A stretch of 64,000 nt of DNA from Dehalococcoidia bacterium (GCA_965207225.1 CBDBLV010000005.1:608001-672000), one strand, 5' to 3'; positions 2-30,096 are shown, counted from the first letter of the stretch. The notes: generated by a model not told the origin, from the sequence alone. Program-made: numbers and translations.

Positions 2-1291
2 ACCATCGTGGCCACCAGCGGGGTAGACGCCCGCAGGCTGGCTGGAAGGCTGGACGTGACGATCAAGGTCACGAACGCCGAGGACCGCGGCAGCGTGGAG
101 TTGTCGCAGATAGAGCCTCGAGAGGGCCGGATAGTGACGGCCACGCTCACGGATGAAGACGGCAACGTCAACATCAGCACGTGGCAGTGGCAGTACGTTG
201 AGCTCCAGTCGGGTGAGGTCTGCAACCCCGGCGAGGGTGACACCGCTCCTACCGGTACGTGGGCTGATATACCGAAGGCAACGTCGGCCTCCTACACGCC
301 GAAGGACTTCGTGGTTGCGGGCGCAACGACCGATATAGCTAACAAGTGTCTGCGGGCGACGGCGACCTACACGGACGGCATCGACCATGCGGATGACACT
401 GTCACACCTGCTCACACCGAGCCCGACACCGCCACGCAGGCGACGGATGCGGTCGTGCAGGTAGCTGGTGCCACCAACAGCGCACCGAGCTTCCCCGACC
501 AGGATCTGACAATGGTAGGCGACCAGTCGGACGAGACGAGCCGGTCGGTAGCTGAGAACACGCCTGCGAAGATGGGCATAGGGTCAGCGGTGGATGCTGA
601 CGATGACGACGGTGACCTGCGTCTGTACTCGCTGAGTGGGCCTGACGCCGACTCCTTCGGGATAAACCGGAAGACCGGCCAGATCATGACGAAGGCGAAG
701 CTGGACTTCGAGACGAAGGACACCTACATAGTGATAGTGACGGCGACCGACCCGTCGGGTGCCAATGACTCCATCACGGTGACCATCAACGTCACAGATG
801 AGAACGACGACGCAACCATCGTCCAGGTCACCGAGCCCGAGGAGCCCGAGTCCACGAACAACGCCCCCGCCTTCCCGGCGGACAGCGTGACCCGCACCGT
901 TGCCGAGAACTCCGAAGGCGGCGCCAACGTCGGTGACCCCGTCGTTGCCACCGACGAGGACGAAGGCGACGAGGTCTCCTACAGCCTGGTTGACGAGTCC
1001 GGCAGCTTCGAAATTTGGCCCTCCGGCCAGATCACCGTTGCCGAAGGCGCCAACCTGGACTTCGAGACCCAGTCCAGCTACACCGTCACCGTTACCGCCA
1101 CGGACGGCACCGACAGCTCCTCCGTCGAGGTCACCATCAACATCGGCAACGTCGGGCTAGCCAGCCCATACGACGCCGACGACAACGGTGAAATCAGCAA
1201 GGCGGAAGCCGTCAACGCGGTACAGGACTACTTCGATGACGAGATATCCAGGGAAGCCGTGCTCGAGGTCATAAGGATCTACTTCGGATAG
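2..1291 (+). CDS. Cadherin-repeat surface protein with C-terminal EF-hand/dockerin-like tail (5'-truncated)
   Basis: Cadherin motifs (N.AP.F, RSVAEN, DADDDG, LDFETK..Y.V.VTATD); tail YDADDNGEISKAEAVNAVQDYFDDEISREAVLEVIRIYFG; frame open from the window start. Confidence 0.85.
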   Translation, partial: TIVATSGVDARRLAGRLDVTIKVTNAEDRGSVELSQIEPREGRIVTATLTDEDGNVNISTWQWQYVELQSGEVCNPGEGDTAPTGTWADIPKATSASYTPKDFVVAGATTDIANKCLRATATYTDGIDHADDTVTPAHTEPDTATQATDAVVQVAGATNSAPSFPDQDLTMVGDQSDETSRSVAENTPAKMGIGSAVDADDDDGDLRLYSLSGPDADSFGINRKTGQIMTKAKLDFETKDTYIVIVTATDPSGANDSITVTINVTDENDDATIVQVTEPEEPESTNNAPAFPADSVTRTVAENSEGGANVGDPVVATDEDEGDEVSYSLVDESGSFEIWPSGQITVAEGANLDFETQSSYTVTVTATDGTDSSSVEVTINIGNVGLASPYDADDNGEISKAEAVNAVQDYFDDEISREAVLEVIRIYFG

Positions 1292-1299
1292 AGAAAAAA

Positions 1300-1336
1300 T
1301 TGCCGAGGGGCTTAAACAATCAAAGCCCCTCGGCAA
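1300..1336. terminator. 14-bp intergenic stem-loop
   Basis: ttgccgaggggctt / aagcccctcggcaa perfect inverted repeat, 9-nt loop; no U-tract on the + strand. Confidence 0.55.
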
Positions 1337-1390
1337 AACCGAAAACAATCAAACGAAGTCCTAAAGAAAGACACACAGGGAGTAGAGAAA

Positions 1391-3061
1391 TTGGCCAGAA
1401 GAGCGCTGACACTGCTGGGTGTCCTCGCAATCGTCGGGGTGGCGGGCCTGTCGCTGTTGATTCCGAACGCCGTCAACGCGGACGAACACAGCGCCACTAG
1501 GTCCTTCGTCTCCAGTTCGGTTGCCACAGGTGCCGAGTTAGAGATAGAAATCACCGCCGAAAATTACGGGTCCTTCGCCCAGGTCGAAGAAACACTTCCG
1601 GAGGGGTTCATATTCCTCCGCTCGGACCTGGACGACAGCAGCATCGAAACTGATGGCCAGAACGTCAAGTTCACCCTGTTCGGTGAGGACCACTTCCACT
1701 ACACGGTCTCCGCATCCCAGGCCTCCGGAGACTACACCTTCTCCGGCACAGTTAAGGACGACAACAGGAACGTGCGTGACGTAAGCGGAGACACCACGGT
1801 CACCGTCAGCGGCGCCGCTCCCCCAGTCGCCGAGCGGACCCTCTCTTCCGACACCGTCCTCCCCGGTCGCCAGCTAGTCGTCTCCGTTTCGGTAGCCGAC
1901 TACGGCATCGGCGGGCGCCTCGTGGAGACCATCCCAGCCGGCTTCGACGTCGTCCCCACCGCCGACAGCTCAGTCAGCGTGTCCGGTGGCAACATATCCT
2001 TCATCCTCCTGGGTGAAGAGTCCGTCACCTACACCCTCATCGCCCCTGACGACCCCGGAGTCCACAACTTTGTTGGTACTATCACCAACTTCGACAAGAT
2101 CTCCGAAGCAGTCGGTGGCGCCGCCCAGGTGACCGTTGCCCCCAGGCCCGCCGCAACCGCCACCCGCTCCTTCGACGCCCCTCGCATTGAGGTCGGCGGC
2201 GAGATCGACGTAAAAGTCGCCCTCACCGACTACGGCGTCGGCGGCAAGCTCGTCGAAACCCTCCCCGAAGGCTTCACCTTCGTAGCCAGCGACCTCGGCG
2301 TAGGCGCCACCAGCGTCGCCGGCCAGAACGTCACCTTCTACCTCCTCGGCGAAGACTCCGTGAGCTACGTAGCCACCGCCCCCGGAGCAGAAGGTTCAGA
2401 CGCCGTCTACAGCTTCAGCGGTGTCCTCAGTGACATCGACAAGAACGATGTGGACGTAACGGGTGACGCAGATCTCCTCGTCGGTACCGTCAACCCAACC
2501 TTCTCCGCGGATGAGACCGCCGTCCGTGAGATCAACGAAAATACCCCGGCCGGCGTCCGCATCGGCGACCCGATCATGGCGTCCGCAGCAATCGGTGGCC
2601 TCACCTTCGAGATTACCAGCGCCGCCGCAGACACCTTCGACATCGAGAACGATGGCCAGCTCCGCACCAAGGGCGACCTGGACTACGAGACCCGGTCCAG
2701 CTACTCGCTCAAGGTGACCATCACCGACGAGTTCGGTGGATCAGCATCCCTCGTGGTCACCGTCCAGGTCCTCGACCGTGACGAATATGTCCCACCGACG
2801 GCCACGCCTGAGCCCACGGCTACCCCGGCACCCACGGCCACCCCAGTCCCGACGGCAACGTCGGTACCGCAGCGACCCACGGCCACCCCAGAGCCTACGG
2901 CCACCCCGGTCCCGACTGTAGAGCCCACGGCCACCCCGACCGTTGTGGAGCCAGACGAGGAAGCTGGGTTCCCGGTATGGGCCATTGTGATAATCGTAAT
3001 CGCAGCGGTCGTAGTGGTAGGCGGCGGAGGGTATGTCGTGTACCGCAGGCAGCAAGGCTAA
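1391..3061 (+). CDS. Membrane-anchored surface protein: signal peptide, 3 cohesin-like beta repeats, cadherin domain, PT linker, C-terminal TM helix
   Basis: Signal peptide MARRALTLLG...VNA; three ~105-aa repeats (A.RSF...YG...ETLPEGF...F.L.GE...Y...Y.FSG...V.G); LDYETRSSY cadherin; PTATP repeats; WAIVIIVIAAVVVV...YRRQQG. Confidence 0.8.
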   Translation: MARRALTLLGVLAIVGVAGLSLLIPNAVNADEHSATRSFVSSSVATGAELEIEITAENYGSFAQVEETLPEGFIFLRSDLDDSSIETDGQNVKFTLFGEDHFHYTVSASQASGDYTFSGTVKDDNRNVRDVSGDTTVTVSGAAPPVAERTLSSDTVLPGRQLVVSVSVADYGIGGRLVETIPAGFDVVPTADSSVSVSGGNISFILLGEESVTYTLIAPDDPGVHNFVGTITNFDKISEAVGGAAQVTVAPRPAATATRSFDAPRIEVGGEIDVKVALTDYGVGGKLVETLPEGFTFVASDLGVGATSVAGQNVTFYLLGEDSVSYVATAPGAEGSDAVYSFSGVLSDIDKNDVDVTGDADLLVGTVNPTFSADETAVREINENTPAGVRIGDPIMASAAIGGLTFEITSAAADTFDIENDGQLRTKGDLDYETRSSYSLKVTITDEFGGSASLVVTVQVLDRDEYVPPTATPEPTATPAPTATPVPTATSVPQRPTATPEPTATPVPTVEPTATPTVVEPDEEAGFPVWAIVIIVIAAVVVVGGGGYVVYRRQQG

Positions 3062-3112
3062 TCGGTCCCAATAGCGGCTGCACCAGCTCTGCAGCATAAA
3101 CTAGAGTGAATA

Positions 3113-3150
3113 CCGTCCCCGGGGAGTAATCCCCGGGGGCGGATCCTCTT
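3113..3150 (+). terminator. Stem-loop/intrinsic terminator after scaffold gene 1
   Basis: ccgtccccgggga-gtaa-tccccgggggcgg followed by a T-rich stretch; homologous hairpin at ~11047-11084. Confidence 0.6.
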
Positions 3151-3216
3151 TAGTGAGTTCTCCTCCTATTTCAGCTACAATGCCCCTGCACCACCTCACG
3201 CCTCGGGAGTACTTCA

Positions 3217-3519
3217 ATGCGCCTGACCGCCAAGGAGATGGACCGCCTGACCATCTTCACCGCCGCCCAGCTTGCCCGCAGGCGTCGGGACAAGGGCCTG
3301 AAGCTAAACTATCCCGAAGCTGTTGCCCTCATCTCCGATGAGCTCCTCGAAGACGGCCGCGAAGGCAAGTCCTACGAAGAAGTGATTGAGCGCGCAGGCC
3401 GAATCCTCACCCGAGACGATGTCCTGGACGGCGTCCCCGACCTGGTAACCCCCCTCCGCCTGGAAGTAACCTTCGACGACGGCAACAAGCTCATATACTT
3501 GGAGGATCCCATCAAGTAA
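3217..3519 (+). CDS. ureA: Urease subunit gamma
   Basis: MRLTAKEMDRL...LARRRRDKGLKLNYPEAVALI...EVTFDDGNKL, 100 aa. Confidence 0.95.
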   Translation: MRLTAKEMDRLTIFTAAQLARRRRDKGLKLNYPEAVALISDELLEDGREGKSYEEVIERAGRILTRDDVLDGVPDLVTPLRLEVTFDDGNKLIYLEDPIK

Positions 3520-3520
3520 G

Positions 3521-3904
3521 GTGAGTCACTCTATGAAGCCCGGCGAAGTTATCAGCAGTGAAGTCGCACTCCCAATAAATCAGGACAGGACAGCAGTCAC
3601 CATTTCGGTGACCAATACCTCTGACCATGCGGTTCAGGTCACTTCCCACTACCATTTCTTCGAAGCGAACAAGCGCCTCCGCTTCAACAGGACTGCAGCC
3701 TACGGGAAGAGACTCGACGTACCCTCGGGCTCCGCTGTGCGATGGCAACCTGTCGAGACCCGAGACGTTACCCTCATCGACATCGCCGGCAAACGTCGAG
3801 TCTATGGCTTTCAGGGACTGGTCAACGGCCAATTGACCGACGAACAGCGCGGCGAGGCCCTCCGTTTGGCCCAGGCCCGAGGTTTCCTTAATCAGGAAGC
3901 TTGA
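3521..3904 (+). CDS. ureB: Urease subunit beta
   Basis: MKPGE...VTNTSDHAVQVTSHYHFFEAN...AYGKRLDVPSGSAVRW...VYGFQGLVNG. Confidence 0.95.
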   Translation: MSHSMKPGEVISSEVALPINQDRTAVTISVTNTSDHAVQVTSHYHFFEANKRLRFNRTAAYGKRLDVPSGSAVRWQPVETRDVTLIDIAGKRRVYGFQGLVNGQLTDEQRGEALRLAQARGFLNQEA

Positions 3905-3906
3905 AC

Positions 3907-5583
3907 ATGACCCACGAGATGGACAGGGCCCATTACAACGCCCTTTACGGCCCCACCGTCGGGGACCGCATCCGATTAGGTGACACTGACCTCTTCCTCC
4001 TGGTAGAAGCCGACCACACCTCCTACGGAAACGAGATCACCCACGGCTGGGGGAAGAACACCCGCACCGGGATGATGCACGCTTACCGTACGCCCAGTGA
4101 CAGCGAGCTTGATGATGTCATCGTGGGCGCTGTAGTTGCCGATCCGGTTCTAGGCATATTCAAGGGTGATATCGGGATCAAGGACGGTGTGATAGCTGGC
4201 ATTGGTCGAGCTGGCAACCCTGACATAATGGACGGCGTCGACTTGGTCTTGGGCCCCAACACCAACGTCTTCCCTGCTGCCGGGCTGATCGCTACCCCCG
4301 GAGGCGTCGATAGCCACGTCCACATTTATCACAACCCAAAACTGCTCGAAACGGCCATCGGGGCGGGCGTCACTACCTTTATCGGTGCTGGACTCAACCA
4401 CAACGGTGAATTCACCATCCACAAGTACTTCGAGGCCTTCGAAGGCGTCCCCATAAACCTTGGCGTCCAGGGCCGAGGCGCCGCCAGCCACCCCGCCCCC
4501 ATCGAGCGCAATATCGAAGCCGGCGCCTGCGGCATGAAGATCCACGAAGACGAGGGTGCTTATCCCTACATCATCGACCTCTGCCTTCAGGTCGCCGAGC
4601 AATACGACGTTTCAGTCGCCCTTCATACCGACGGTCTTCAGGAGTCCATGCAGGTAAACGACACTATAGAAGCAATCGGTGGCAGGGCCCTCCACGCATA
4701 TCACGTCGAAGGCGTTGGAGGTGGCCATGCCCCTGACCTTCTCAAACTGGCCGGTGTCGAAAACATAATGACCTCATCCACCACCCCCACCGTTCCCTAT
4801 ACCGCCGGCACCTACCAAGAACACTTCCCCATGACCGCCCTTGTTCATGGCCTAACCCCTCATCTTCCCACGGATGTCGCCGCCCTTGAAGCCCGTGTCC
4901 GTCGCGAGACCATGGCCGCAGAGGACGTTCTCCACGACATTGGCGCAGTTCCAATCATCAACTCCGACTCCCAGGGAATGGGCCGTATCGGGGAAGTCGT
5001 TACTCGCACTTGGCAGCTTGCCCACAAGATGAAGAGGGAACGAGGGAGCGTTAATCCGGATCACGACAACGACCGAATCCTCCAGTATCTGGCCAAGATT
5101 ACGATCAACCCTGCCATTACCCACGGCATTTCCGAATATGTGGGGTCACTCCGTAATGGCAGGATGGCAGACATTGTCCTTTGGGACCCTCGCTTCTTTG
5201 GAGTGAAGCCCGACACCGTCTTCAAGGGCGGCTTCGTCGCCTGGGGCCCCAGTGGGGAAGGCAACGCTTCTGTAACCGGTTCCCAACCTACAGTCTATGG
5301 TCCGGCTTTTGGCGCCATGGGTCACGCTGCCGGGAAACTAAGCGCTTTCTTCGTCTCTCAGGCATCGCTTGATAAGGACTTACCTAAGCGCCTGCGTTCG
5401 CGCAGAAAGTTCCTCCCCGTCAGAAACGTACGTAGCGTCTCCAAGAGGAAAATGATCCTTAACACCCGAAACCCCATGATAGACATTGACCCCTGTACAT
5501 CCCGGGTTCTCGTTAATGGCGTCGAAGCCATTTCAGAAGCCGTCAGAGAATTTCCACTAAATCGCCAGTATGTCATTACTTGA
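3907..5583 (+). CDS. ureC: Urease subunit alpha (divergent)
   Basis: YGPTVGDRIRLGDTDL; metal-ligand motifs DSHVH, MKIHED, ALHTD, YHVEGVGGGHAPD, SDSQGMGR. Confidence 0.93.
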   Translation: MTHEMDRAHYNALYGPTVGDRIRLGDTDLFLLVEADHTSYGNEITHGWGKNTRTGMMHAYRTPSDSELDDVIVGAVVADPVLGIFKGDIGIKDGVIAGIGRAGNPDIMDGVDLVLGPNTNVFPAAGLIATPGGVDSHVHIYHNPKLLETAIGAGVTTFIGAGLNHNGEFTIHKYFEAFEGVPINLGVQGRGAASHPAPIERNIEAGACGMKIHEDEGAYPYIIDLCLQVAEQYDVSVALHTDGLQESMQVNDTIEAIGGRALHAYHVEGVGGGHAPDLLKLAGVENIMTSSTTPTVPYTAGTYQEHFPMTALVHGLTPHLPTDVAALEARVRRETMAAEDVLHDIGAVPIINSDSQGMGRIGEVVTRTWQLAHKMKRERGSVNPDHDNDRILQYLAKITINPAITHGISEYVGSLRNGRMADIVLWDPRFFGVKPDTVFKGGFVAWGPSGEGNASVTGSQPTVYGPAFGAMGHAAGKLSAFFVSQASLDKDLPKRLRSRRKFLPVRNVRSVSKRKMILNTRNPMIDIDPCTSRVLVNGVEAISEAVREFPLNRQYVIT

Positions 5584-5832
5584 CTTTGTGGCGGTTTTGG
5601 AGCAAACCTTTATTGGGTAATATGAGCCCTAACCTGACAAATTGACCGCTTTTCCTCTGTGAATTTCATAGAAAACCCTACCAATTCTCGCCGCGAAACA
5701 GTACAATCTGTAGGCTATAAGGTTCAAAGCATGTGGTATCATTCACCGAAGATTGGTCTCCTCTGTTCTGAAGCGAATGGCATAGGCCGTTCACAGGCGA
5801 ACAAGAGGCTGACCCCAGCGGAGATTGACTAA

Positions 5833-8800
5833 ATGACAAGTGCGATAAAGTCCCGGAGCTCGAAAACCCCGTCGCGCGTATTAGTGGTGGCGGCTGCATT
5901 CCTGGCAGCTGTCATGTTCATGACGCTTTTCCTGCCTTCTCTTTTGCTCGAATTCGGACACGCGCAAGGGCAGGTCGAGCCCGTGCAGGTCTCCAAGCTA
6001 TTCCTTGAGAATAGCGAGGATCCGGTCACAGAGTTCGGCGCCGTAGACCCTGAAGGCCAACCCATCAGATGGCAGCTCTCCGGCAATGACTCCGCTGACT
6101 TCTCAGTCAATGAAGGTGTCCTAACCTTTACCGTCCCACCCGATTTCGAAAACCCGGCAGACCAGAACCGGGACAACGTCTATGAAGTCACCGTGGAAGC
6201 CCGTGACCCTGGCTTTAACATCGCACCTGCCGAACTCACCATTCAAGTCCTGAACATTGACGAGGACGGCATCGTAACCCTTTCCACCGATAGGCCCCAG
6301 CAGGGCGTGCGTGTCACAGCCAGCGTCACCGACCCCGACCGCATAACCTCGCAAATTGAATGGCAATGGTCCAAGTCCCTCAACGGAGTTACGGGCTGGG
6401 CCGATATTTCCGGCGCAACCGCCGGCCACTACGTACCTACGGAATTTGATGTCGGCCATTACATCCGGGCCACTGCAACTTACAACGATGTCCAGGGCGG
6501 TGATACCTCCAAGTCTGCCCATGGCATTTCGGCCAACGCTGTTGTGGCAGAGCCCCACATCAACCGCGCACCTGAATTCCTTGACCGCTCCCCGACCAGA
6601 TCTGTCAACGAAAACGTCGCCGCTGGCACCCCGGTCGGAGACCCCGTCGCCGCAGAGGACCAGGACAATGACGACCTGACTTACGTACTCGGTGGCGCCG
6701 ACGCTTCAACTTTCTCCATTGATAGCTCCACCGGCCAGATCTCGGTCGGTGCGGGCGCCAGTATTGACTTTGAGACCAAGAGTAGCTACAGCGTAACTGT
6801 CACGGCTTCGGACCCTTCGGCCACCAGTGACGCTGTGACCGTTACCATCTCTGTCAATGATGTAAATGAACCCCCCACCGCCCCCTCGGGGGACACGGCA
6901 ATCGACTATCCCGAAAACGGAACCTCGGCAGTCCAGCGCTTCACCTCCTCCGACCCCGAGGGTGATTCCTTGAGATGGTCCCTCTCCGGTGATGACGCCT
7001 ACGATTTCTCCATCGCCGAAGGAGTCCTCAGCTTCGTCTCTTCGCCTGATTTTGAAAGTCCTGCCGACAGAGACCTTGACAATGTCTACGATGTGACCAT
7101 CAGCGCTGGCGATACCGCCGGCAAGACCACTTCCATTGATGTGACCGTAACCGTAACCAACGTGGATGAAGCAGGCACGGTTACCCTGTCTTCAGATCAG
7201 CCCGGAGAAGGCGTTAGCTTTTCGGCCCGCTTAGCCGACCCTGACCGCATTACCTCTACGATCTCCTGGCAGTGGTCCCGCTCCACGGATTCCGCAGCTG
7301 GTTGGGTTGATATCCCCAACTCCAACTCTGGAATCTACGTACCTTCTGTAGTTGATGTCGGTCACTACCTCCAGGCTACGGCCACCTACAGAGATGCCGA
7401 AAGTGCAACCGACAACAAGACCGCGAGCCGGGTTTCCGCTAATGCGGTCCTTGCCCGACCTGAAATCAACATCGCCCCCGAATTCCTTGAGGATGACCCA
7501 GCGTCAAGGAGCGTTAACGAGAACGCGGCTGCTGGCGCCGCTGTCGGTGATCCGGTCGCCGCAGAGGATGCCAACGGTGATGAGTTGACCTACACCTTGG
7601 GTGGCGATGACTTAGCCTCCTTCTCCATAGATGCTGCTACCGGTCAGATCTCCGTTGGCAACGGCACTGTACTTGACTTCGAGTCCCAGTCATCCTACTC
7701 CGTGTCCGTCACAGCTACTGACCCTGAGGGCCTGTATGACAGCATTGGCGTCTCAATATCGGTCAACGATGTTGACGAGGCCCCGTCCATCTCCGCAGAT
7801 TCAACCGAGATGGAGTACGCCGAGAACGATACTGACCCAGTCGCTACCTTCAGCGCTTCCGACCCAGAAGGTGTAACCCCCATCGGTTGGGAGCTCTCCG
7901 GTGACGACTCCGACAACTTCACAATCGCGGACGGTGTGCTCTCCTTCAGCGCCTCCCCAGACTATGAAAACCCGACTGACCAGGGTCTAGACAATGTCCA
8001 TAACCTCTCCATCGGCGCCAGGGATACCACAGCCAATATCACTTGGCTCGCAGTCACCGTGACTGTTACCAACGTTGAAGAGGCAGGCGCGGTAAGCTTG
8101 TCCACCGGTCAGCCCACCGAGGGCGTCCGGATAACCGCTACACTGAGCGATCCTGATCACATCGCCTCCAGGGTCTCTTGGCAGTGGGCCCGGTCCGCAG
8201 ATGGGTCTAGTTGGACTGACATCGAGGATGCTAACTCCGCCATCTACACACCTGGCCGGGACGACGGCAATCACTACCTCCGGGCTACCGCTAGTTACAA
8301 TGACCGTGAAGATGCTGTAACCACTAAGACTGCCAGCGCCCAAACCGATGAAGCGGTTATCCCTGTAGAGCGTCCCAACCAGCCGCCGACTTTCACAGAC
8401 TCTGACCCAACGGGTAGGTCAGTCAACGAAAACGCCGCAACGGCCGCCCCTGTTGGAGCCCCGGTCGATGCCGAGGACCCGGATGACGAGACCCTCGTCT
8501 ACACCCTAAGTGGTGATGATGCAGACGCCTTCGACATCAACTCGGCTACCGGTCAGATCTCTGTCGCCGAAGGCACTGAGCTCGACTTCGAGACCGACAA
8601 CAGCTACAGCGTCATCGTCACAGTGGTTGACCCCGCTGGCGCCAGTGACACCATCGGTGTCCTGATCTCCGTTACCGACGTTGATGAGACCCCCACAATC
8701 TTCGAAAAAGAGCTCATCATCCTCGAAAGCAGGCCTTCCGACTACACGGAGAACAGCATCCACAAGGTCGCTACTTACGCAGTCGATGGGACAAAGACCG

Positions 8801-9168
8801 AGGGTGTCGTTTGGACCCTTACGGGTGTGGACGCCGGCCTCTTCAGCATCACCCAGCTTAATGGGTTGGTAGAGCTCACCTTCAATTCCTCGCCGGACTA
8901 CGAAAACCCGATGGACCAGGGTAGGGACAACGAATACAACATCACCATCGTTGCTACCAACAACGAGGGTACCGAGTCTACTCTATCCGTAATCGTCACA
9001 GTCTCTGATGACCCAGACGACAATGCAGGCTCCGCAGCAGTCTTCGACCTCAACGGTGACGGAGTAATCGACCGGGCCGAAGCGCTCGCAGCCGTGAGAG
9101 ACTACTTCAACGACGACATCACCCTAGACCAGGTCCTGGCGGTTATCGTCCGGTACTTCGCCAGCTAA
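5833..9168 (+). CDS. Large secreted cadherin/Ig-repeat protein with C-terminal EF-hand/dockerin-like tail
   Basis: N-terminal hydrophobic signal; three ~300-aa super-repeats (cadherin PDFENP.D..DNVY + Ig-like WQWS.S...GHY.RATATY + cadherin LDFE); tail FDLNGDGVIDRAEALAAVRDYFNDDITLDQVLAVIVRYFAS. Confidence 0.88.
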   Translation: MTSAIKSRSSKTPSRVLVVAAAFLAAVMFMTLFLPSLLLEFGHAQGQVEPVQVSKLFLENSEDPVTEFGAVDPEGQPIRWQLSGNDSADFSVNEGVLTFTVPPDFENPADQNRDNVYEVTVEARDPGFNIAPAELTIQVLNIDEDGIVTLSTDRPQQGVRVTASVTDPDRITSQIEWQWSKSLNGVTGWADISGATAGHYVPTEFDVGHYIRATATYNDVQGGDTSKSAHGISANAVVAEPHINRAPEFLDRSPTRSVNENVAAGTPVGDPVAAEDQDNDDLTYVLGGADASTFSIDSSTGQISVGAGASIDFETKSSYSVTVTASDPSATSDAVTVTISVNDVNEPPTAPSGDTAIDYPENGTSAVQRFTSSDPEGDSLRWSLSGDDAYDFSIAEGVLSFVSSPDFESPADRDLDNVYDVTISAGDTAGKTTSIDVTVTVTNVDEAGTVTLSSDQPGEGVSFSARLADPDRITSTISWQWSRSTDSAAGWVDIPNSNSGIYVPSVVDVGHYLQATATYRDAESATDNKTASRVSANAVLARPEINIAPEFLEDDPASRSVNENAAAGAAVGDPVAAEDANGDELTYTLGGDDLASFSIDAATGQISVGNGTVLDFESQSSYSVSVTATDPEGLYDSIGVSISVNDVDEAPSISADSTEMEYAENDTDPVATFSASDPEGVTPIGWELSGDDSDNFTIADGVLSFSASPDYENPTDQGLDNVHNLSIGARDTTANITWLAVTVTVTNVEEAGAVSLSTGQPTEGVRITATLSDPDHIASRVSWQWARSADGSSWTDIEDANSAIYTPGRDDGNHYLRATASYNDREDAVTTKTASAQTDEAVIPVERPNQPPTFTDSDPTGRSVNENAATAAPVGAPVDAEDPDDETLVYTLSGDDADAFDINSATGQISVAEGTELDFETDNSYSVIVTVVDPAGASDTIGVLISVTDVDETPTIFEKELIILESRPSDYTENSIHKVATYAVDGTKTEGVVWTLTGVDAGLFSITQLNGLVELTFNSSPDYENPMDQGRDNEYNITIVATNNEGTESTLSVIVTVSDDPDDNAGSAAVFDLNGDGVIDRAEALAAVRDYFNDDITLDQVLAVIVRYFAS

Positions 9169-9199
9169 ATGGTAGACTGGGCAAGCAGCTAGAATAGCC

Positions 9200-9240
9200 C
9201 ACCGCCTCCAGGGTGCATCCCTGGGGGCGGTGATGCTTTT
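9200..9240 (+). terminator. Stem-loop between adhesin and scaffold genes
   Basis: caccgcctccaggg-tgcat-ccctgggggcggtg followed by atgctttt. Confidence 0.55.
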
Positions 9241-9346
9241 GGAGCCTTGGACTGGATTAAACCCCCCAGCCCGAGAGAGGCCCTTGGCTGACCAATCCCA
9301 GCACTACAAAAGGGGCGCGCTCCAACCCCTTAAAGAAAGAAGGAAC

Positions 9347-10996
9347 TTGGTCAAGAAAGCGCTGATGCTGCTGGGAGTCCTCGCAATTGTCGGGGTCGCT
9401 GGCCTATCGCTGTTGCTGCCGGATGCCGTGAATGCAAGCGAGCACAGCGCGACCAGGTCCTTCTCCACCAATCCCGTAATCACCGGCGCCGAGCTGGAGG
9501 TCGAGATATCGGTCTCCGGCCTCGGCTCCTTCGGCCAGGTCCGGGAAACCCTACCGGAAGGCTTCTCCTTCGGCCGCTCCGATGAAGCCTCCACCACCGA
9601 CGGACAGAACGTCACCTTCACTCTCCTCGGCGGCGACAAGTCCTTCAGCTACTCCGTCACCGCCCCCTCGACGGCCGGGTCATACCAGTTCTCCGGCACC
9701 GTCAGCGACTCCAACAGGGACGCCCGGGACACCGGCGGCGACTCCTCCATAGAAGTGATAGACCCGCCCCTCGGGGCCCAGAGGTCCATAAGCCGTTCGT
9801 CCGTAACCACCGGAGAGCAGATAACAGTAAGCATAGACGCCTCGGGCTTCGGGATCGCGGCATCCGTGGAAGAGAGCCTTCCCGCTGGATTCTCCTACAT
9901 GGCCAGCAGCCTCTCCGCCGCCGCCGTTAACGTGAGCGACGACAGTATCAAGTTCACCCTCCTCGACGAGGACAGCTTCAGCTACACCCTTGTCGCCGGA
10001 GACCCCGGTGACTACACCATCTCCGGCACAATCACCGGCTTCGACAGGGCCTCCGAAGCCATCACCGGCGACGACAGCTTGATGGTAGTCGCATCCGTAG
10101 ACGCCGCCGCTGCCCGGTCCTTCGGCCCCGCCTTCGCAGACCCCGAGGGTGAAATCGCAGTGAGCATCGCGGCCTCGGGCTACGGGGCCGCCGCCCAGAT
10201 CGTGGAAATCATCCCTGATGGCTTCACCTACGTTGGCACGGACCTTCCCGGTGGCGCAATAGACACCTCCGGACAGTCCGTCACCTTCGTCCTGCTCGGC
10301 GAGTCGAGCTTCAGCTACACCGTATCGGCCCCCGCCGAAATGGGCGTCTACGCCTTCAGCGGTACCCTGACTGACATCGACCAGGCCGAGTCGGCAGTCG
10401 GTGGCGCAGCGGACCTCCACGTCAGCAACCCCGGCATCGTAATCGACGACAGCGGCGTCCGTGAAATCAACGAAAACACCCCGGCCGGCGTCCGCATCGG
10501 CGACCCGATCATGGCGTCCGCAGCAATCGGTGGCCTCACCTTCGAGATTACCAGCGCCGCCGCAGACACCTTCGACATCGAGAACGATGGCCAGCTCCGC
10601 ACCAAGGGCGACCTGGACTACGAGACCCGGTCCAGCTACTCGCTCAAGGTGACCATCACCGACGAGTTCGGTGGATCAGCATCCCTCGTGGTCACCGTCC
10701 AGGTCCTCGACCGTGACGAATACGTTCCACCGACGGCCACGCCTGAGCCCACGGCTACCCCGGCACCCACGGCCACCCCAGTCCCGACGGCAACGTCGGT
10801 ACCGCAGCGACCCACGGCCACCCCAGAGCCTACGGCCACCCCGGTCCCGACTGTAGAGCCCACGGCCACCCCGACCGTTGTGGAGCCAGACGAGGAAGCT
10901 GGGTTCCCGGTATGGGCCATTGTGATAATCGTAATTGCAGCGGTCGTAGTGGTAGGCGGCGGAGGGTACTTCGTCTACCGCAGACAGCAAGGCTAA
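9347..10996 (+). CDS. Second membrane-anchored 3x cohesin-like/cadherin/PT/TM scaffold protein
   Basis: Paralog of 1391-3061; TTG start at 9347 after an AG-rich RBS aligns with the paralog's signal peptide; C-terminal ~180 aa essentially identical. Confidence 0.8.
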   Translation: MVKKALMLLGVLAIVGVAGLSLLLPDAVNASEHSATRSFSTNPVITGAELEVEISVSGLGSFGQVRETLPEGFSFGRSDEASTTDGQNVTFTLLGGDKSFSYSVTAPSTAGSYQFSGTVSDSNRDARDTGGDSSIEVIDPPLGAQRSISRSSVTTGEQITVSIDASGFGIAASVEESLPAGFSYMASSLSAAAVNVSDDSIKFTLLDEDSFSYTLVAGDPGDYTISGTITGFDRASEAITGDDSLMVVASVDAAAARSFGPAFADPEGEIAVSIAASGYGAAAQIVEIIPDGFTYVGTDLPGGAIDTSGQSVTFVLLGESSFSYTVSAPAEMGVYAFSGTLTDIDQAESAVGGAADLHVSNPGIVIDDSGVREINENTPAGVRIGDPIMASAAIGGLTFEITSAAADTFDIENDGQLRTKGDLDYETRSSYSLKVTITDEFGGSASLVVTVQVLDRDEYVPPTATPEPTATPAPTATPVPTATSVPQRPTATPEPTATPVPTVEPTATPTVVEPDEEAGFPVWAIVIIVIAAVVVVGGGGYFVYRRQQG

Positions 10997-11156
10997 TCGG
11001 TTAGACCAGCGGTTGCCCTGGCCAGATAGCATAAAATAGAGTGAAATCCGCCCCCGGGGAGCAATCCCTGGGGGCGGATTCTTTCGTGGTGCGTGAGTTC
11101 TCCTCCTATTTCAGCTACAATGCCCCTGCACCACCTCACGCCTCGGGAGTACTTCA

Positions 11157-11459
11157 ATGCGCCTGACCGCCAAGGAGATGGACCGCCTGACCATCTTCAC
11201 CGCCGCCCAGCTTGCCCGCAGGCGTCGGGACAAGGGCCTGAAGCTAAACTATCCCGAGGCTGTTGCCCTCATCTCCGATGAGCTCCTCGAAGACGGCCGC
11301 GAAGGCAAGTCCTACGAAGAAGTGATTGAGCGCGCAGGCCGAATCCTCACCCGAGACGATGTCCTGGACGGCGTCCCCGACCTGGTAACCCCCCTCCGCC
11401 TGGAAGTAACCTTCGACGACGGCAACAAGCTCATATACTTGGAGGATCCCATCAAGTAA
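11157..11459 (+). CDS. ureA: Urease subunit gamma (copy 2)
   Basis: Protein identical to 3217-3519. Confidence 0.95.
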   Translation: MRLTAKEMDRLTIFTAAQLARRRRDKGLKLNYPEAVALISDELLEDGREGKSYEEVIERAGRILTRDDVLDGVPDLVTPLRLEVTFDDGNKLIYLEDPIK

Positions 11460-11460
11460 G

Positions 11461-11844
11461 GTGAGTCACTCTATGAAGCCCGGCGAAGTTATCAGCAGTG
11501 AAGCCGCACTCCCAATAAATCAGGACAGGACAGCAGTCACCATTTCGGTGACCAATACCTCTGACCATGCGGTTCAGGTCACTTCCCACTACCATTTCTT
11601 CGAAGCGAATAAGCGCCTCCGCTTCAACAGGACTGCAGCCTACGGGAAGAGACTCGACGTACCCTCGGGCTCCGCTGTGCGATGGCAACCTGGCGAGACC
11701 CGAGACGTTACCCTCATCGACATCGCTGGCAAACGTCGAGTCTATGGCTTTCAGGGACTGGTCAACGGCCAATTGACCGACGAACAGCGCGGCGAGGCCT
11801 TCCGTTTGGCCCAGGTCCGAGGTTTCCTTAATCAGGAAGCTTGA
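11461..11844 (+). CDS. ureB: Urease subunit beta (copy 2)
   Basis: Four aa differences from copy 1. Confidence 0.95.
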   Translation: MSHSMKPGEVISSEAALPINQDRTAVTISVTNTSDHAVQVTSHYHFFEANKRLRFNRTAAYGKRLDVPSGSAVRWQPGETRDVTLIDIAGKRRVYGFQGLVNGQLTDEQRGEAFRLAQVRGFLNQEA

Positions 11845-11846
11845 AC

Positions 11847-13523
11847 ATGACCCACGAGATGGACAGGGCCCATTACAACGCCCTTTACGGCCCCACCGTC
11901 GGGGACCGCATCCGATTAGGTGACACTGACCTCTTCCTCCTGGTAGAAGCCGACCACACCTCCTACGGAAACGAGATCACCCACGGCTGGGGGAAGAACA
12001 CCCGCACCGGGATGATGCACGCTTACCGTACGCCCAGTGACAGCGAGCTTGATGATGTCATCGTGGGCGCTGTAGTTGCCGATCCGGTTCTAGGCATATT
12101 CAAGGGTGATATCGGGATCAAGGACGGTGTGATAGCTGGCATTGGTCGAGCTGGCAACCCTGACATAATGGACGGCGTCGACTTGGTCTTGGGCCCCAAC
12201 ACCAACGTCTTCCCTGCTGCCGGGCTGATCGCTACCCCCGGAGGCGTCGATAGCCACGTCCACATTTATCACAACCCAAAACTGCTCGAAACGGCCATCG
12301 GGGCGGGCGTCACTACCTTTATCGGTGCTGGACTCAACCACAACGGTGAATTCACCATCCACAAGTACTTCGAGGCCTTCGAAGGCGTCCCCATAAACCT
12401 TGGCGTCCAGGGCCGAGGCGCCGCCAGCCACCCCGCCCCCATCGAGCGCAATATCGAAGCCGGCGCCTGCGGCATGAAGATCCACGAAGACGAGGGTGCT
12501 TATCCCTACATCATCGACCTCTGCCTTCAGGTCGCCGAGCAATACGACGTTTCAGTCGCCCTTCATACCGACGGCCTTCAGGAGTCCATGCAGGTGAACG
12601 ACACCATAGAGGCAATCGGTGGCAGGGCCCTCCACGCATATCACGTCGAAGGCGTTGGAGGTGGCCATGCCCCTGACCTTCTCAAACTGGCCGGTGTCGA
12701 AAACATAATGACCTCATCCACCACCCCCACCGTTCCCTATACCGCCGGCACCTACCAAGAACACTTCCCCATGACCGCCCTTGTTCATGGCCTAACTCCT
12801 CATCTTCCCACGGATGTCGCTGCCCTTGAAGCCCGTGTCCGTCGCGAGACCATGGCCGCAGAGGACGTTCTCCACGACATTGGCGCAGTTCCAATCATCA
12901 ACTCCGACTCCCAGGGAATGGGCCGTATCGGGGAAGTCGTTACTCGCACTTGGCAGCTTGCCCACAAGATGAAGAGGGAACGAGGGAGCGTTAATCCGGA
13001 TCACGACAACGACCGAATCCTCCAGTATCTGGCCAAGATTACGATCAACCCTGCCATTACCCACGGCATTTCCGAATATGTGGGGTCACTCCGTAATGGC
13101 AGGATGGCAGACATTGTCCTTTGGGACCCTCGCTTCTTTGGAGTGAAGCCCGACACCGTCTTCAAGGGCGGCTTCGTTGCCTGGGGTGCGAATGGAGAAG
13201 GCAATGCCTCCATATCCAGGTGTGAGCCAACTATCTACGGACCTGCCTTCGGGGCTATGGGGCGCGCCGCGGGTAGACTCAGCGCCTTTTTCGTATCCCA
13301 GGCATCTCTTGACAAAGGTCTGGCTGAGAACCTGCGCTCCCACCGAAAGCTCCTGCCCGTCAGAAACATACGCAGCGCATCCAAGAGGAAAATGGTCCTC
13401 AACACCCTTAATCCGACCATCGACGTTGATCCCCGGACCTCTCGCGTTCTCGTGGACGGTCGGGAGGCTGTCTCAGAGGCAGTAAAGCAGGTACCGCTCA
13501 ACCGACTCTATGTGATTACATGA
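11847..13523 (+). CDS. ureC: Urease subunit alpha (copy 2, different C-terminus)
   Basis: Same as copy 1 up to GGFVAWG, then a diverged last ~110 aa. Confidence 0.93.
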   Translation: MTHEMDRAHYNALYGPTVGDRIRLGDTDLFLLVEADHTSYGNEITHGWGKNTRTGMMHAYRTPSDSELDDVIVGAVVADPVLGIFKGDIGIKDGVIAGIGRAGNPDIMDGVDLVLGPNTNVFPAAGLIATPGGVDSHVHIYHNPKLLETAIGAGVTTFIGAGLNHNGEFTIHKYFEAFEGVPINLGVQGRGAASHPAPIERNIEAGACGMKIHEDEGAYPYIIDLCLQVAEQYDVSVALHTDGLQESMQVNDTIEAIGGRALHAYHVEGVGGGHAPDLLKLAGVENIMTSSTTPTVPYTAGTYQEHFPMTALVHGLTPHLPTDVAALEARVRRETMAAEDVLHDIGAVPIINSDSQGMGRIGEVVTRTWQLAHKMKRERGSVNPDHDNDRILQYLAKITINPAITHGISEYVGSLRNGRMADIVLWDPRFFGVKPDTVFKGGFVAWGANGEGNASISRCEPTIYGPAFGAMGRAAGRLSAFFVSQASLDKGLAENLRSHRKLLPVRNIRSASKRKMVLNTLNPTIDVDPRTSRVLVDGREAVSEAVKQVPLNRLYVIT

Positions 13524-13659
13524 TGAGGCTCTATGCCCAGGTGCTCCTAACTGAGTGTCAACCCTGGGTCGTTTGAAGTGGTCGGGCAATATATCTTCCC
13601 GCTCTGCTGCCAGGAATGCAAAGGCCTCGCCAAAGCTGCTAATGTGGATCACAAAGGAA

Positions 13660-13734
13660 TGGAGCCAGCGAAGGGAATCGAACCCTTGGCCTGCGGTTTA
13701 CGAAACCGCTGCTCTACCGCTGAGCTACGCTGGC
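13660..13734 (-). tRNA. tRNA-Thr(CGT)
   Basis: Reverse complement gccagcgtagctcagcggtagagcagcggtttcgtaaaccgcaggccaagggttcgattcccttcgctggctcca; anticodon CGT, encoded CCA. Confidence 0.96.
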
Positions 13735-13817
13735 CTCAATGCCGGGCCCTCACGCCCGACATACCATATTATCAATAGGAATCCGCCCTTTGTAAATCTA
13801 CCCCTTCGCCCCGACTC

Positions 13818-13845
13818 TGGACATTCCCAGCACCCCGGCTATAAT
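13818..13845 (+). promoter_or_regulatory. Putative sigma70 promoter
   Basis: TGGACA-N16-TATAAT upstream of the 13889 ORF. Confidence 0.5.
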
Positions 13846-13888
13846 TGGAGCAGCGGCTTGGAGCCGCCACCAAACCACTGGAGACAGC

Positions 13889-14080
13889 ATGGACCGCATA
13901 CCTTCAAGTATTCTTCTCCCTCTCATGGCTGGCATCTTCGTCCTCGTTGTTGGTGGAGGGCTGGGGGTCATATTCACCCTCGCCGGAATCATGGGCACCA
14001 TCATCATCGGATTGGCCATAGTTATCCTCTCACCTATCATTGCCTTCTGGTTGGCTAAGGGCCAGCGCACTAGCTCCTGA
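13889..14080 (+). CDS. Small 2-TM membrane protein
   Basis: 63 aa, two hydrophobic helices, GGAG RBS, hairpin terminator at ~14110-14140. Confidence 0.65.
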   Translation: MDRIPSSILLPLMAGIFVLVVGGGLGVIFTLAGIMGTIIIGLAIVILSPIIAFWLAKGQRTSS

Positions 14081-14223
14081 CCTCACTCCAACAGAGCCAG
14101 CCCATCAAGAAAGAGAGCGTATTGCGCTCTCTTTTCTCTTTCCTTCAGCCGGTGCCTCCTGTTGCGCAACAGCCGACCGGAAATGTAGTATGCCCCCGAC
14201 CCCCAACCTTCCAGGAGGTGACC

Positions 14224-15435
14224 ATGTCCCGGCTTGTCATCACCAACTGCCACCTTATCGACGCCGTTTCAGATCACGCGCAGCCCGATGCCAGCATCGC
14301 CATAGAAGACGGCCTCATCACCCACATCGAGACAAACGGCAACAGCATAGATGCCGACGGCACCCGAGTTATTGATGCCGGGGGCGGCTGGCTCCTCCCG
14401 GGACTCTGGGACGTCCATGTTCACCTCATGTTCCCCTATCCCCCGCCTAAGACCATCCCCGAGCGCGTCGTCAGCTACGGTAAAAATGCCATGGAAGGCC
14501 TCACGGGGAGTGGAGTCACCGGCATCCGCAGCGGCGGTATTGAGCACTGGATAGACGTCGCCTGGCGGGACGCCTTCACCTCAGGCCAGTACCTGGGCCC
14601 CCGAGTCTTCGCTTCCGGCTACTTTCTCACCACCACTGGCGGACACGGCACCCGATGGCCCTTCTCTCAGCAGTGTGACGGCCCTGAAGACTTCGTTCTC
14701 GCCGTCCGAAAGCAGATCGAGAATAACGTTGACCACATCAAGCTGAACCTATCCGGCGGCATCATGGGCCCCGACTGGGACCGCCACTGGCACAGCTTCT
14801 TCCTCCCAGACGAGATGGAAGCCACCTACCAGGTCTGCCACCAGCGAGACATGAAGGTTATGTCCCACGCCGCCAACCCCGACGCCGTCAAGGGCGCCGT
14901 TCGCAACGACACCTGGACCGTAGAGCACGGCTACATAATGGACGATGAGTGCCTCGATATGATGAAGGAAAAGGGCACCATCTACGTCCCCACCCTCGGC
15001 ATCAGCCACCTCACCCCCAGGCAGGTTACCAATGAATGGGAGCAAGAGTACCTGGAGGTAAAGCAGATCTCCGCCGAAATGCTCGCCCGAGCAGACGCCG
15101 CCGTCGAAGAGCACGCCATGTGGTTCAAGAAGGCCCTCGACTCCGGTGTCAAGATGGCCCTCGGCTCAGACCTCGGCCCCGTCAAGGATGCCGTTCACCT
15201 GGAGATGGGCCTCTGGGTCCGGGACGGAGCCACGCCCATGCAGGCCATCAAGGCAGCTACCGCCATGTCCGCCCTGACTTGCGGCGTCGATGACAAGCTC
15301 GGCACCGTAGAGGTAGGAAAGATTGCTGACCTCATAGTCGTCGGCGCCGACCCCCTTGAGAACATCGATAACATGCGCCAACTCCGGATGGTCTTCAAGG
15401 ACGGTCGCCTCGTCGTCGATAAGACCACTGATTGA
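14224..15435 (+). CDS. Amidohydrolase (imidazolonepropionase/Xaa-Pro dipeptidase-like)
   Basis: LLPGLWDVHVH, DHIKL, SHA, VEHG, GSD, GTVEVGKIADL; GGAGGTG RBS before ATG 14224. Confidence 0.9.
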   Translation: MSRLVITNCHLIDAVSDHAQPDASIAIEDGLITHIETNGNSIDADGTRVIDAGGGWLLPGLWDVHVHLMFPYPPPKTIPERVVSYGKNAMEGLTGSGVTGIRSGGIEHWIDVAWRDAFTSGQYLGPRVFASGYFLTTTGGHGTRWPFSQQCDGPEDFVLAVRKQIENNVDHIKLNLSGGIMGPDWDRHWHSFFLPDEMEATYQVCHQRDMKVMSHAANPDAVKGAVRNDTWTVEHGYIMDDECLDMMKEKGTIYVPTLGISHLTPRQVTNEWEQEYLEVKQISAEMLARADAAVEEHAMWFKKALDSGVKMALGSDLGPVKDAVHLEMGLWVRDGATPMQAIKAATAMSALTCGVDDKLGTVEVGKIADLIVVGADPLENIDNMRQLRMVFKDGRLVVDKTTD

Positions 15436-15461
15436 CCTCCCCACTGCAAGGAGCTTCCCCC

Positions 15462-16598: not shown

Positions 16599-16739
16599 AG
16601 TACTCGAAAAACTCTTTCAAAGAACTAATTTCATGCCTAGCCCCGTCTAGGATCGCCGAGAACGCCCCTCTCCCTTCCAACCCGACTCCGAAGTCATCCC
16701 AACCCCAAAATCGCACCCTTTTGTGGCCCGATTTTCCCC

Positions 16740-17846: not shown

Positions 17847-17898
17847 GTTTCGCCTCCCTGCCCCTTATTTGACCTGCGGCCCCGATGCCCGGGCCCCG

Positions 17899-19032: not shown

Positions 19033-19047
19033 CTTCGTCTTTACCCC

Positions 19048-21264: not shown

Positions 21265-21436
21265 TCTTACCTCCTGGCCTGGTGAGGCGCACACGCCTCA
21301 AAGACAACTCCCAATAAGACTGGGATTCCCGAGTGATTGAGGTGATTGTACTACCGGCGTAGGCAGTGTCAATTAGGCTATCGTGGAAAACAACCCGACA
21401 CCCGCTCCCGACACTGTATCGGAGTTCGGAGTCCTA

Positions 21437-29921: not shown

Positions 29922-30096
29922 ATGCAAGACTCACCTCCGACGATACTGTCCCTCATGCCAATCATAACGTCTCACCCTCCCGAAATGTTCCTGACCTCGC
30001 TGCCCTGCCTAAATGTCATTCCTATGTGACCCGCGGGGCATCTGGGGAGGGGCCCGGCGCCGAATCACACTTTTGTTCCTCGCACCTCGGTTCGTA

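Follow-up and report, generated by a model that had tools for sequence, protein, structure and literature searches.

A calcium-loop tail and a repeat-bearing membrane anchor as a putative surface-retention pair in Dehalococcoidia and archaea

How does a cell that has no outer membrane keep exported proteins that carry no membrane anchor of their own? The question is raised by a 64,000-nucleotide stretch of DNA from a Dehalococcoidia bacterium (GCA_965207225.1 CBDBLV010000005.1:608001-672000), called the window here at its full length and numbered from its first letter. In it, two cadherin-array surface proteins end in a tail of about 42 residues built around a calcium loop, and each is followed by a gene for a membrane protein with three beta-sandwich repeats. 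Such a gene pair recurs in many bacteria and archaea and probably holds secreted proteins on the cell surface. That it does so as a two-part, non-covalent system, in which the tail would bind a repeat directly, is a reading we hold with a little more confidence than doubt.

Tail genes and their anchor genes

The genes in question all lie on the + strand, in the order cadA', scafA, ureA/B/C, cadB and scafB, with a second ureA/B/C set after scafB. cadA' (2..1291) is the 3' part of a cadherin-array gene whose 5' end lies outside the window; its translation matches Pfam Cadherin in two stretches (E 1.7e-23) and has no C-terminal transmembrane (TM) helix. It ends in tail A (1166..1288, amino acids 389-429), which consists of the calcium loop DADDNGEISKAE, a helix, a short turn and a second helix closing with YFG before the stop codon. 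The adjoining scafA (1391..3061) encodes a 556-residue membrane anchor protein with a signal peptide (cleavage-like VNA at 1472-1480), three DUF11/BatD-type beta-sandwich repeats (1490-1828, 1826-2158 and 2156-2503; E 1e-23 to 5e-25 with a repeat hidden Markov model, HMM), a cadherin-like stalk domain (2525..2785; Pfam Cadherin E 7.1e-8), a linker rich in Pro and Thr (2786-2968) and a TM helix with a basic stop-transfer segment (2969-3049). The second pair is built alike. cadB (5833..9168) encodes 1111 residues with an N-terminal signal-like hydrophobic segment, a Pfam Cadherin match (E 5e-44) and no C-terminal TM helix; its tail B (9040..9165, amino acids 1070-1111) has the calcium loop DLNGDGVIDRAE, a helix, a turn and a helix, and ends in YFAS and a stop. 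scafB (9347..10996, 549 residues) shares with scafA a common plan of signal peptide ending in VNA, three repeats (9446-9772, 9773-10108 and 10106-10441; E 7e-18 to 5e-24), cadherin domain (Pfam Cadherin E 1.3e-7), Pro/Thr linker, TM helix and YRRQQG. An NCBIfam scan of these four proteins, the two with tails and the two anchors, gave nothing above cutoff.

The first-pass annotation of the window had described both features, the anchorless cadherin arrays ending in a calcium-loop tail and the multidomain anchor gene behind each of them, and both were borne out. Two of its details are revised: the repeats measure 109-116 residues (about 112) rather than about 105, and scafB starts not at 9230 but at TTG 9347, where a ribosome-binding-site-like GAAGGAA lies upstream and the start is homologous to that of scafA.

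We scanned one genome per species with anchor-derived patterns alone and obtained 66 loci, taken with 10-kb flanks. Most come from Dehalococcoidia metagenome-assembled genomes (MAGs), the others from Methanosarcinales, anaerobic methanotrophic archaea (ANME-1 and ANME-2), Syntrophoarchaeum, Methanosalsum and one member of the Calditrichales. All stop-to-stop open reading frames (ORFs) of these loci were searched with a tail HMM and a repeat HMM. The synteny that the first-pass annotation had proposed as a check was found: in 48 of the 66 loci an ORF with a tail at its end lies in the same orientation as the first repeat and stops within 600 nt before it; L026 is included with a weak tail (i-E 0.0031). 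Five loci have only a fusion of tail and repeat in a single ORF, and two further loci show both arrangements, so that fusion occurs in seven. Thirteen loci have neither: four of these are truncated by the contig start, in two a sub-threshold tail precedes the repeat closely, and the other seven are true misses. By an estimate that assumes random placement and a locus length of about 20 kb, the chance of a tail falling into the 600-nt same-strand slot is about 1.5%. The tail ends within four residues of the stop codon in 60 of 71 cases, and of 65 uncut tail ORFs, 53 have a hydrophobic stretch at the N-terminus. This gene order is kept across unrelated cargo and in both bacteria and archaea. As a weaker sign in the same direction, the six repeats that lie beside tails of an 'F-D-P-W-x-Y-D' type (four bacterial, two archaeal, from two cargo families) form one side of a branch of the repeat tree; the 'FDPWxYD' type needs one change on that tree, a value as low being reached in 0 of 500 shuffles (quick tree; Shimodaira-Hasegawa-like approximate likelihood ratio test, SH-aLRT, 78-88). 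This clustering fits the idea that tail and receptor travel together. Gene order and fusion support the view that tail and repeat protein form a conserved, functionally coupled pair, a conclusion we would defend more readily than direct binding between the two.

Judged by the proteins that carry it, the tail is a modular tag on varied exported cargo, not something that merely accompanies cadherins. When the tail profile was run against 1.84 billion cluster representatives, 7078 matched at E<=1e-3 and 1460 at E<=1e-10. Among the best 150 of these, 115 had at least one full tail, which was C-terminal in 71 and present in 2-4 copies in 42, and N-terminal and tandem tails were found as well; the remaining 35 were multi-loop calcium proteins without a full tail, and the repeat was also present in just two of the 150. 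A word-index protein search with a 47-residue tail gave just three close matches, a result that says little about distribution. Pfam domains on 78 of the best tail representatives included Cadherin (29), a peptidase or phosphoesterase domain (six, of the types Peptidase_C1, Trypsin_2, Peptidase_S8 (two), Peptidase_M11 and Metallophos) and Cohesin followed by the tail (two), together with fn3, He_PIG, Ig and leucine-rich repeat (LRR). The 41 tail ORFs from our loci comprised 18 cadherin or cadherin-like proteins, four Peripla_BP_2, four SBP_bac_5, three Peptidase_S8, one Peptidase_C1 and two LRR proteins, the rest being single types or without assignment. The first-pass picture of an enzyme-free adhesion scaffold fits this window only, since elsewhere the tail carries subtilases, a papain-like protease and binding proteins of ATP-binding cassette (ABC) transporters.

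The cargo encoded directly before an anchor includes the cadherin arrays of Dehalococcoidia, the Peripla_BP_2 binding proteins of L044, L056, L057 and L059, the SBP_bac_5 binding proteins of Methanosarcinales (L012, L043) and the Big_2 proteins of ANME-2 and Syntrophoarchaeum (L046, L052). In L012, an SBP_bac_5 protein with a tail is followed by a four-repeat protein and by a two-repeat protein that ends in a PGF-CTERM-like signal; after these come two BPD_transp_1 permeases and then two ABC ATPases. In the Dehalococcoidia loci L056, L044 and L059, a TM-anchored repeat protein lies directly 3' of the Peripla_BP_2-plus-tail gene; we read these clusters as corrinoid uptake clusters because they contain FecCD (all three), ABC_tran (L056, L044), CobA/BtuR (L056) and CbiZ (L059). 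L057 has the Peripla_BP_2-plus-tail gene, a protein with a repeat and Dockerin_1, and then a TM-anchored repeat protein. All four tail-bearing Peripla_BP_2 proteins have a plain type I signal peptide (...SLA/TTYP) and no lipobox cysteine, whereas two tail-less paralogues in the same clusters have a lipobox (L056:11300-12253, LTAC; L044:13906-14835, SLAC). Where there is no outer membrane, a cell has to tether its binding proteins; the tail with its adjoining anchor takes the place that a lipid anchor would have. That the two replace the lipobox of the paralogues in position is supported, by sequence, for the corrinoid-transporter operons of Dehalococcoidia. Like a lipobox, they would keep a binding protein at the membrane, and lipobox paralogues share their operons; unlike the covalent lipid on the cargo, retention here would be non-covalent and would pass through a separate anchor protein.

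The tail, the repeats and their known relatives

Across a family alignment of 63 tails (A2), the tail has one canonical calcium loop, DxDxDGxIxxxE, with an exit helix, followed by a sequence-related second helix without a loop. D1, N/D3, N/D/S5 and E12 of the loop are each present in 63 of 63 sequences, I8 in 61 and G6 in 48, a pattern that indicates strong constraint. After the loop the alignment reads ...A..DYF, a short turn and then I-[TS]-[KR]-x-x-[VA]-x-x-[VL]-I-x-L-Y-F; Ile and the helix pattern (I..x4..[AV]..YF) recur in this second segment, whereas loop positions 1-5 are missing from it. In a six-frame translation of the 64 kb, the motif D.[DN].[DNS]G.[ILV]...[ED] is found at two places and no others, the C-termini of cadA' and cadB. 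The seed tail HMM, which was built with both window tails included, scores tail A at 75 bits (E 2.2e-21) and tail B at 82 bits (E 1.1e-23). An AlphaFold2 (AF2) model of tail A (predicted local distance difference test score, pLDDT, 89.5) has coil or loop at residues 1-17, helices at 18-29 and 35-46, and no entering helix.

By sequence the tail is most like EF-hand motifs (PF13405, PF00036). Both have a canonical 12-residue loop with invariant ligand positions (1, 3, 5 and 12), position 6 being Gly and position 8 hydrophobic, and on the 63 family tails Pfam places EF-hand_6 in 55 and EF-hand_1 in 50. The tail differs from EF-hands in being extracellular and C-terminal and in lacking, in the window sequences, the AF2 model and the 63-tail alignment, a score above the curated cutoff, an entering helix and a second functional loop to pair with. 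The window tails reach 13.7-20.2 bits with EF-hand models whose cutoffs are 25-30 bits, and tail B, with E 4e-4 for EF-hand_5 and 6e-4 for EF-hand_1, stays short of the curated thresholds. A profile search of PDB sequences with the tail gave EF-hand proteins as best matches, over the loop region only. In a protein atlas, where look-up scores of 0.81-0.90 serve as leads only, the tail's neighbours were small unnamed clusters and a few Dockerin_1/EF-hand clusters at 0.81-0.82. Two other kinds of C-terminal signal were considered for the tail and rejected. A type I secretion system or repeats-in-toxin (T1SS/RTX) signal is contradicted by the absence of GGxGxD repeats, by the N-terminal signal peptides and by hosts that have no outer membrane; a sortase or PEP/PGF-type sorting signal on the cargo is contradicted by a tail that is amphipathic and has no TM helix.

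The repeats, aligned over 125 sequences (A3), have invariant R4, E34, P37 and Y71 and an ETLPxGF motif. Pfam assigns DUF11 to 55 of the 125 and BatD to 16. In the window, repeat 2 of scafB matches BatD (E 4e-8; 34.2 bits, cutoff 24.1) and the other five give no DUF11 or BatD match individually; precomputed PF01345 or PF13584 assignments are found on most homologous anchors, and the atlas neighbours, at lead level, are DUF11/CARDB clusters. To our knowledge, no function is attached to the DUF11, BatD or CARDB-like families. The present repeats match the Pfam models of such surface proteins (PF01345, PF13584) and differ from them in general by a fixed context, after a tail gene and on a stalk with a C-terminal membrane anchor. 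By a crude test, a C-terminal TM helix with basic residues is present in at least 55 of 78 tail-less repeat ORFs and in none of nine repeat-tail fusions; several archaeal repeat proteins end in a PGF-CTERM-like signal, as judged by eye. The AF2 model of scafA repeat 1 is all beta (pLDDT 95.8) and has 116 Foldseek matches in the PDB at E<=0.001 (TM-score 0.5-0.7), among them the CLIPPER adhesin domain, integrin, AgI/II domains, BslA, pilins and YcnI. Cohesins are included as well (2xdh from Archaeoglobus, E 3.6e-5, TM-score 0.60; 2jh2, 4ums, 5n5p, 3ul4 and 6kgf), at E 4e-5 to 4e-4 and TM-score 0.54-0.60. Since the matches spread over many beta-sandwich families, we take the fold to be a general surface beta-sandwich of which cohesin is one look-alike. 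A PDB sequence search with the repeat profile found no solved relative (best E 0.095).

Some homologues combine the two parts in one chain. P0038, of 802 residues, has a signal peptide, four repeats, a cadherin domain, two tandem tails and no TM anchor. Secreted proteins with one repeat and a C-terminal tail are encoded at L037:6989-10774, L055:6938-10768 and L062:2309-4252 and in L032 and L049; they are of LRR/fn3, papain-like protease and lactonase-like types and have no separate anchor gene nearby. If the tail binds the repeat, these proteins could self-associate head to tail.

The anchoring system that the pair most resembles is that of the cellulosome, where anchoring scaffoldins combine cohesins with a cell-envelope anchor. 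A dockerin is defined by two duplicated segments of about 22 residues, each a calcium-binding loop and a helix, giving two calcium sites. In both systems a small calcium-binding loop-helix tag ends diverse exported cargo, a cell-anchored protein carries tandem all-beta receptor-like modules with a Pro/Thr-rich linker, and many tagged proteins face few anchors, with adaptor-like fusions between them. The differences are these. The tail is about 42 residues long, has one complete calcium loop with Glu at position 12 and matches EF-hand models; the receptor-like repeats are of about 112 residues and DUF11/BatD-type; anchorage is through a TM helix or PGF-CTERM-like signal in place of S-layer homology (SLH) or sortase; and the cargo consists of adhesins and transporter binding proteins in place of glycoside hydrolases, with tail-repeat binding putative. 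With a modular tag on varied cargo and a cell-anchored multi-receptor scaffold nearby, the predicted architecture is that of a cellulosome-like display. The best reading of the sequences is that the pair would function like cohesin-dockerin anchoring (summarised in a section of PMC9012536) without being a member of those families.

Non-cellulosomal cohesin and dockerin modules of archaea and bacteria are reportedly the subject of Peer et al. (2009). In ANME archaea, many 'dockerin' domains have been described, notably on NikA/OppA and TroA binding proteins, with cohesins assumed as partners (Chadwick et al. 2022, PMC9012536; Timmers et al. 2017, PMC5244752, in the parts covered here). Hosts and cargo overlap with ours: Methanosarcinales and ANME, and SBP_bac_5 and Peripla_BP_2 proteins with a C-terminal calcium-loop tag. 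The idea of attaching functional proteins to the cell's outer layer is shared too. The covered parts of these papers name no DUF11-type receptor, whereas the conserved neighbour here is an anchor with DUF11/BatD-type repeats, and a search of the text supplements of PMC9012536 for DUF11, pfam01345, EF-hand, SBP_bac_5 and pfam00404 returned one unrelated EF-hand row. Among the papers surveyed, most by title and the opening of the abstract, we found no description of a tail paired with a DUF11-type anchor.

Direct binding and its rivals

In the mechanism we propose, cargo would be exported by its N-terminal signal peptide; here it comprises two cadherin-array adhesins, elsewhere proteases, LRR proteins and ABC-importer binding proteins. 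Each cargo would present, usually at its extreme C-terminus, the tail of about 42 residues with its single Ca2+ loop and exit helix and its loop-less second helix. The neighbouring gene would provide a type I membrane protein with one to six DUF11/BatD-type repeats at its outer end, three here, raised on a stalk of cadherin domain and Pro/Thr-rich linker above a C-terminal TM helix, or held by a PGF-CTERM-like signal in archaea. A calcium-loaded tail would bind a repeat and so retain its cargo on the cell; as many as three cargoes could sit on an anchor with three repeats, supplied by the adjoining gene and by orphan tail genes elsewhere. The binding, its calcium dependence, its stoichiometry and its specificity are what we infer from this pattern. 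A complex prediction for scafA residues 30-470 with tail A scored 0.00 and, run without controls, counts neither for nor against. The first-pass annotation had already proposed that the tail docks on the repeats. What stands of that proposal is the conserved pairing, the modular cargo, the membrane anchoring of most tail-less repeat proteins and the alternation with the lipobox; what is not supported is the assignment to the dockerin and cohesin families.

Several results weigh against direct binding, or against reading the pair as a counterpart of cohesin and dockerin. The seven true misses have a repeat protein and readable upstream sequence with no tail gene in it, and many of the 48 paired loci are not phylogenetically independent, because most are Dehalococcoidia MAGs. 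Orphan tail genes without an adjoining repeat gene are common in the flanks (the cadB orthologues of L001, L002 and L010, three subtilases and an RCC1 protein), and no anchor follows the cadB orthologue in any of those three loci. Within the window, the two occurrences that the first-pass annotation had counted separately are one ancestral pair plus a local rearrangement in duplicated DNA; arising by insertion or duplication of the anchor with ureABC, the second pair is not independent evidence for pairing, and it could conceivably be an assembly join. Strong GC-rich hairpins with 13-14-bp stems follow cadA' (1300..1336, +, 14 bp; RNA fold -27.3 kcal/mol, z -6.96), scafA (3113-3142) and cadB (9200..9232, +, 14 bp, followed by a TTTT-containing stretch and terminator-like). 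Because such hairpins follow both tail genes, co-transcription with the anchor is uncertain in the window, and tail and anchor genes may be separate or attenuated transcription units in this genome. The structural comparisons suggested by the first-pass annotation gave a divided answer: for the repeat, cohesins appear among the matches, with CLIPPER, AgI/II, integrin, pilin and YcnI at least as good (TM-score up to 0.69), and for the tail, a very small domain, nothing in the PDB was found at E<=0.001, the dockerin 8x39_B being at rank 16 (E 9.9). By profile, Dockerin_1 (PF00404) gave no match to the window tails even at E<=10, and Cohesin (PF00963) matched one of 125 repeats (E 0.0028), none of them from the window.

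One alternative, possible if clearly less probable than direct binding, is that the two genes cooperate without any contact between tail and repeat: the tail would dimerise or bind another envelope component such as an S-layer or wall polymer, and the repeat protein would serve beside it as a co-expressed surface partner, whether spacer, co-adhesin or coat subunit. EF-hand motifs usually occur in pairs, and with a single complete calcium loop per tail this makes tail-tail dimerisation a live alternative; the 2-4 tandem tails in 42 of the best 150 representatives could pair mutually, and the frequency of orphan tails and the generic surface fold of the repeat also fit. Such cooperation leaves unexplained why, in bacteria and archaea alike, the repeat gene comes directly after the genes of three unrelated cargo classes, why seven loci have repeat and tail fused, and why tail-bearing binding proteins lack the lipobox of their tail-less paralogues; moreover, by dimerisation alone a cell that lacks an outer membrane would not retain binding proteins that are soluble. 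There is also a more ordinary account, in which the tail is a stand-alone calcium cap stabilising the last cadherin domain, the repeats are Ig-like stalks of an unrelated protein and the adjacency is synteny inherited within Dehalococcoidia. Cadherin arrays bind calcium in any case, most loci come from one bacterial class, and the window's second pair is a rearrangement product. We nevertheless consider this account very improbable: it is largely refuted by the tail on non-cadherin cargo (Peripla_BP_2, SBP_bac_5, Peptidase_S8, Peptidase_C1, LRR, Cohesin), the tail is also found N-terminally and in tandem, and the adjacency recurs in Methanosarcinales, ANME-2 and Syntrophoarchaeum, and also inside ABC-importer operons.

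It is also unlikely, if less so, that the parts share true, if very distant, ancestry with dockerin and cohesin, which would make the system an outlying member of the known non-cellulosomal cohesin-dockerin family and not an analogue of it. The loop-helix (F-hand) form without an entering helix is that of a dockerin, as is the internal duplication of the helix; 2 of 63 family tails match Dockerin_1 at E<=1 (best 0.006), Dockerin_1/EF-hand clusters turn up in the atlas at lead level, cohesins are found by Foldseek, and broad InterPro signatures label many ANME binding proteins 'dockerin' (covered parts of PMC9012536 and PMC5244752). The profiles point elsewhere. Against Cohesin in one repeat stand DUF11 in 55 and BatD in 16, and EF-hand_6 matches 55 of the tails; the 63-tail alignment has one complete calcium loop where a dockerin has two, with Glu at position 12 throughout. 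Pfam Cohesin and Dockerin_1 also coexist with the repeat in single proteins: L052:2493-4514 combines the repeat with FlgD_ig, PKD, Cohesin (E 8.7e-12) and Dockerin_1 (23.4 bits, cutoff 22.9), and L057:9947-10570 the repeat with Dockerin_1. The L052 dockerin scores 5.4 bits with the tail HMM, where tails at E<=1e-4 score 23-84 bits. This coexistence and this low score are why we treat tail and repeat as distinct from dockerin and cohesin by sequence. P0203 and P0211 consist of Cohesin and a tail, and adaptor-like proteins of these kinds seem to cross-wire the two systems.

Returning to direct binding of tail and repeat, we regard a wider claim as evenly poised: that cells lacking an outer membrane, namely Dehalococcoidia/SAR202-like Chloroflexota and Methanosarcinales/ANME archaea, have in this pair a widespread and undescribed dock-and-anchor system, in which an EF-hand-derived calcium tail of one and a half loops docks on DUF11-type receptor repeats, convergent with cohesin-dockerin and replacing the lipid anchor of binding proteins. 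The wider system would also account for the many 'dockerin'-tagged binding proteins of ANME. If the tail does bind the repeats, bacteria and archaea would have a second plug and socket between proteins for displaying others on the surface, built independently of the first and with a tail family of thousands of 50%-identity clusters, and a first function could be assigned to this subfamily of DUF11 repeats. The retention of anchorless binding proteins, proteases and very long adhesins by Dehalococcoidia, ANME and Methanosarcinales would then be explained. A small pair (about 42 and about 112 residues) that calcium could switch would be of use in protein engineering. The system would further bear on the attachment of uncultured marine Chloroflexota to particles, hosts or partners; cadherin-domain proteins are described as enriched in sponge-associated MAGs in the part of PMC8163846 covered here.

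Origin of the second pair and neighbouring genes

The second pair likely arose by local duplication or recombination of the anchor together with ureABC, as suggested by comparison within the window and with related loci. By blastn, a 3-kb segment spanning the anchor stalk, linker, TM helix and ureA, ureB and ureC (2518..5513, + strand) recurs at 10453..13453 (+), where it spans the scafB stalk, linker and TM helix and ureABC2, with 95.9% DNA identity. The C-terminal 178 residues of scafB equal those of scafA except at one position (Val/Phe beside the TM helix). The first urease copy lies at 3217..5583 (+; urease Pfam matches) and the second structural gene set, ureABC2, at 11157..13523 (+); the copies share 100% (ureA), 96.9% (ureB) and 94.6% (ureC) protein identity, and the urease accessory genes ureD/E/F/G were absent from the window ORFs scanned. 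Positions 857-9240 of the window are colinear with locus L001 at 78.7%, and 9340-17000 with L007 9994-17652 at 95.7%; scafB is 86% identical to its L007 orthologue. Seven related loci (L001, L002, L005 and L007-L010) have the order big tail protein, anchor, a single ureABC, orf167 (not detected in L008), amidohydrolase and pyridoxal-phosphate (PLP) enzyme. A full-length cadB orthologue lies between ureABC and orf167 in L001 (83% identity), L002 and L010 (60%). When these seven loci were compared, the block of scafB and ureABC2 after cadB and beside tRNA-Thr was found in this window only. The tRNA-Thr(CGT) gene (13660-13734, -) sits at the downstream edge of that block, inside a 167-residue ORF (13555-14058, +) that has no Pfam match and may be spurious; the tRNA gene may mark a recombination site.

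Farther along, a 541-residue protein with DUF4349 and a PKD domain (28302-29927, -) is likely an envelope protein and has neither tail nor repeat. Four tandem Amidohydro_2 paralogues occupy 16740-21294 (-), with a fifth nearby (24874-26016, +); three CoA-transferase III genes, three thiolase-like genes and a luciferase-like monooxygenase further along form with them a paralogue-rich catabolic block. Two DDE transposase genes stand back to back at 30352-31914 (-) and 32063-33199 (+), one matching DDE_Tnp_1_4 and the other DDE_Tnp_1 with DDE_Tnp_1_assoc.

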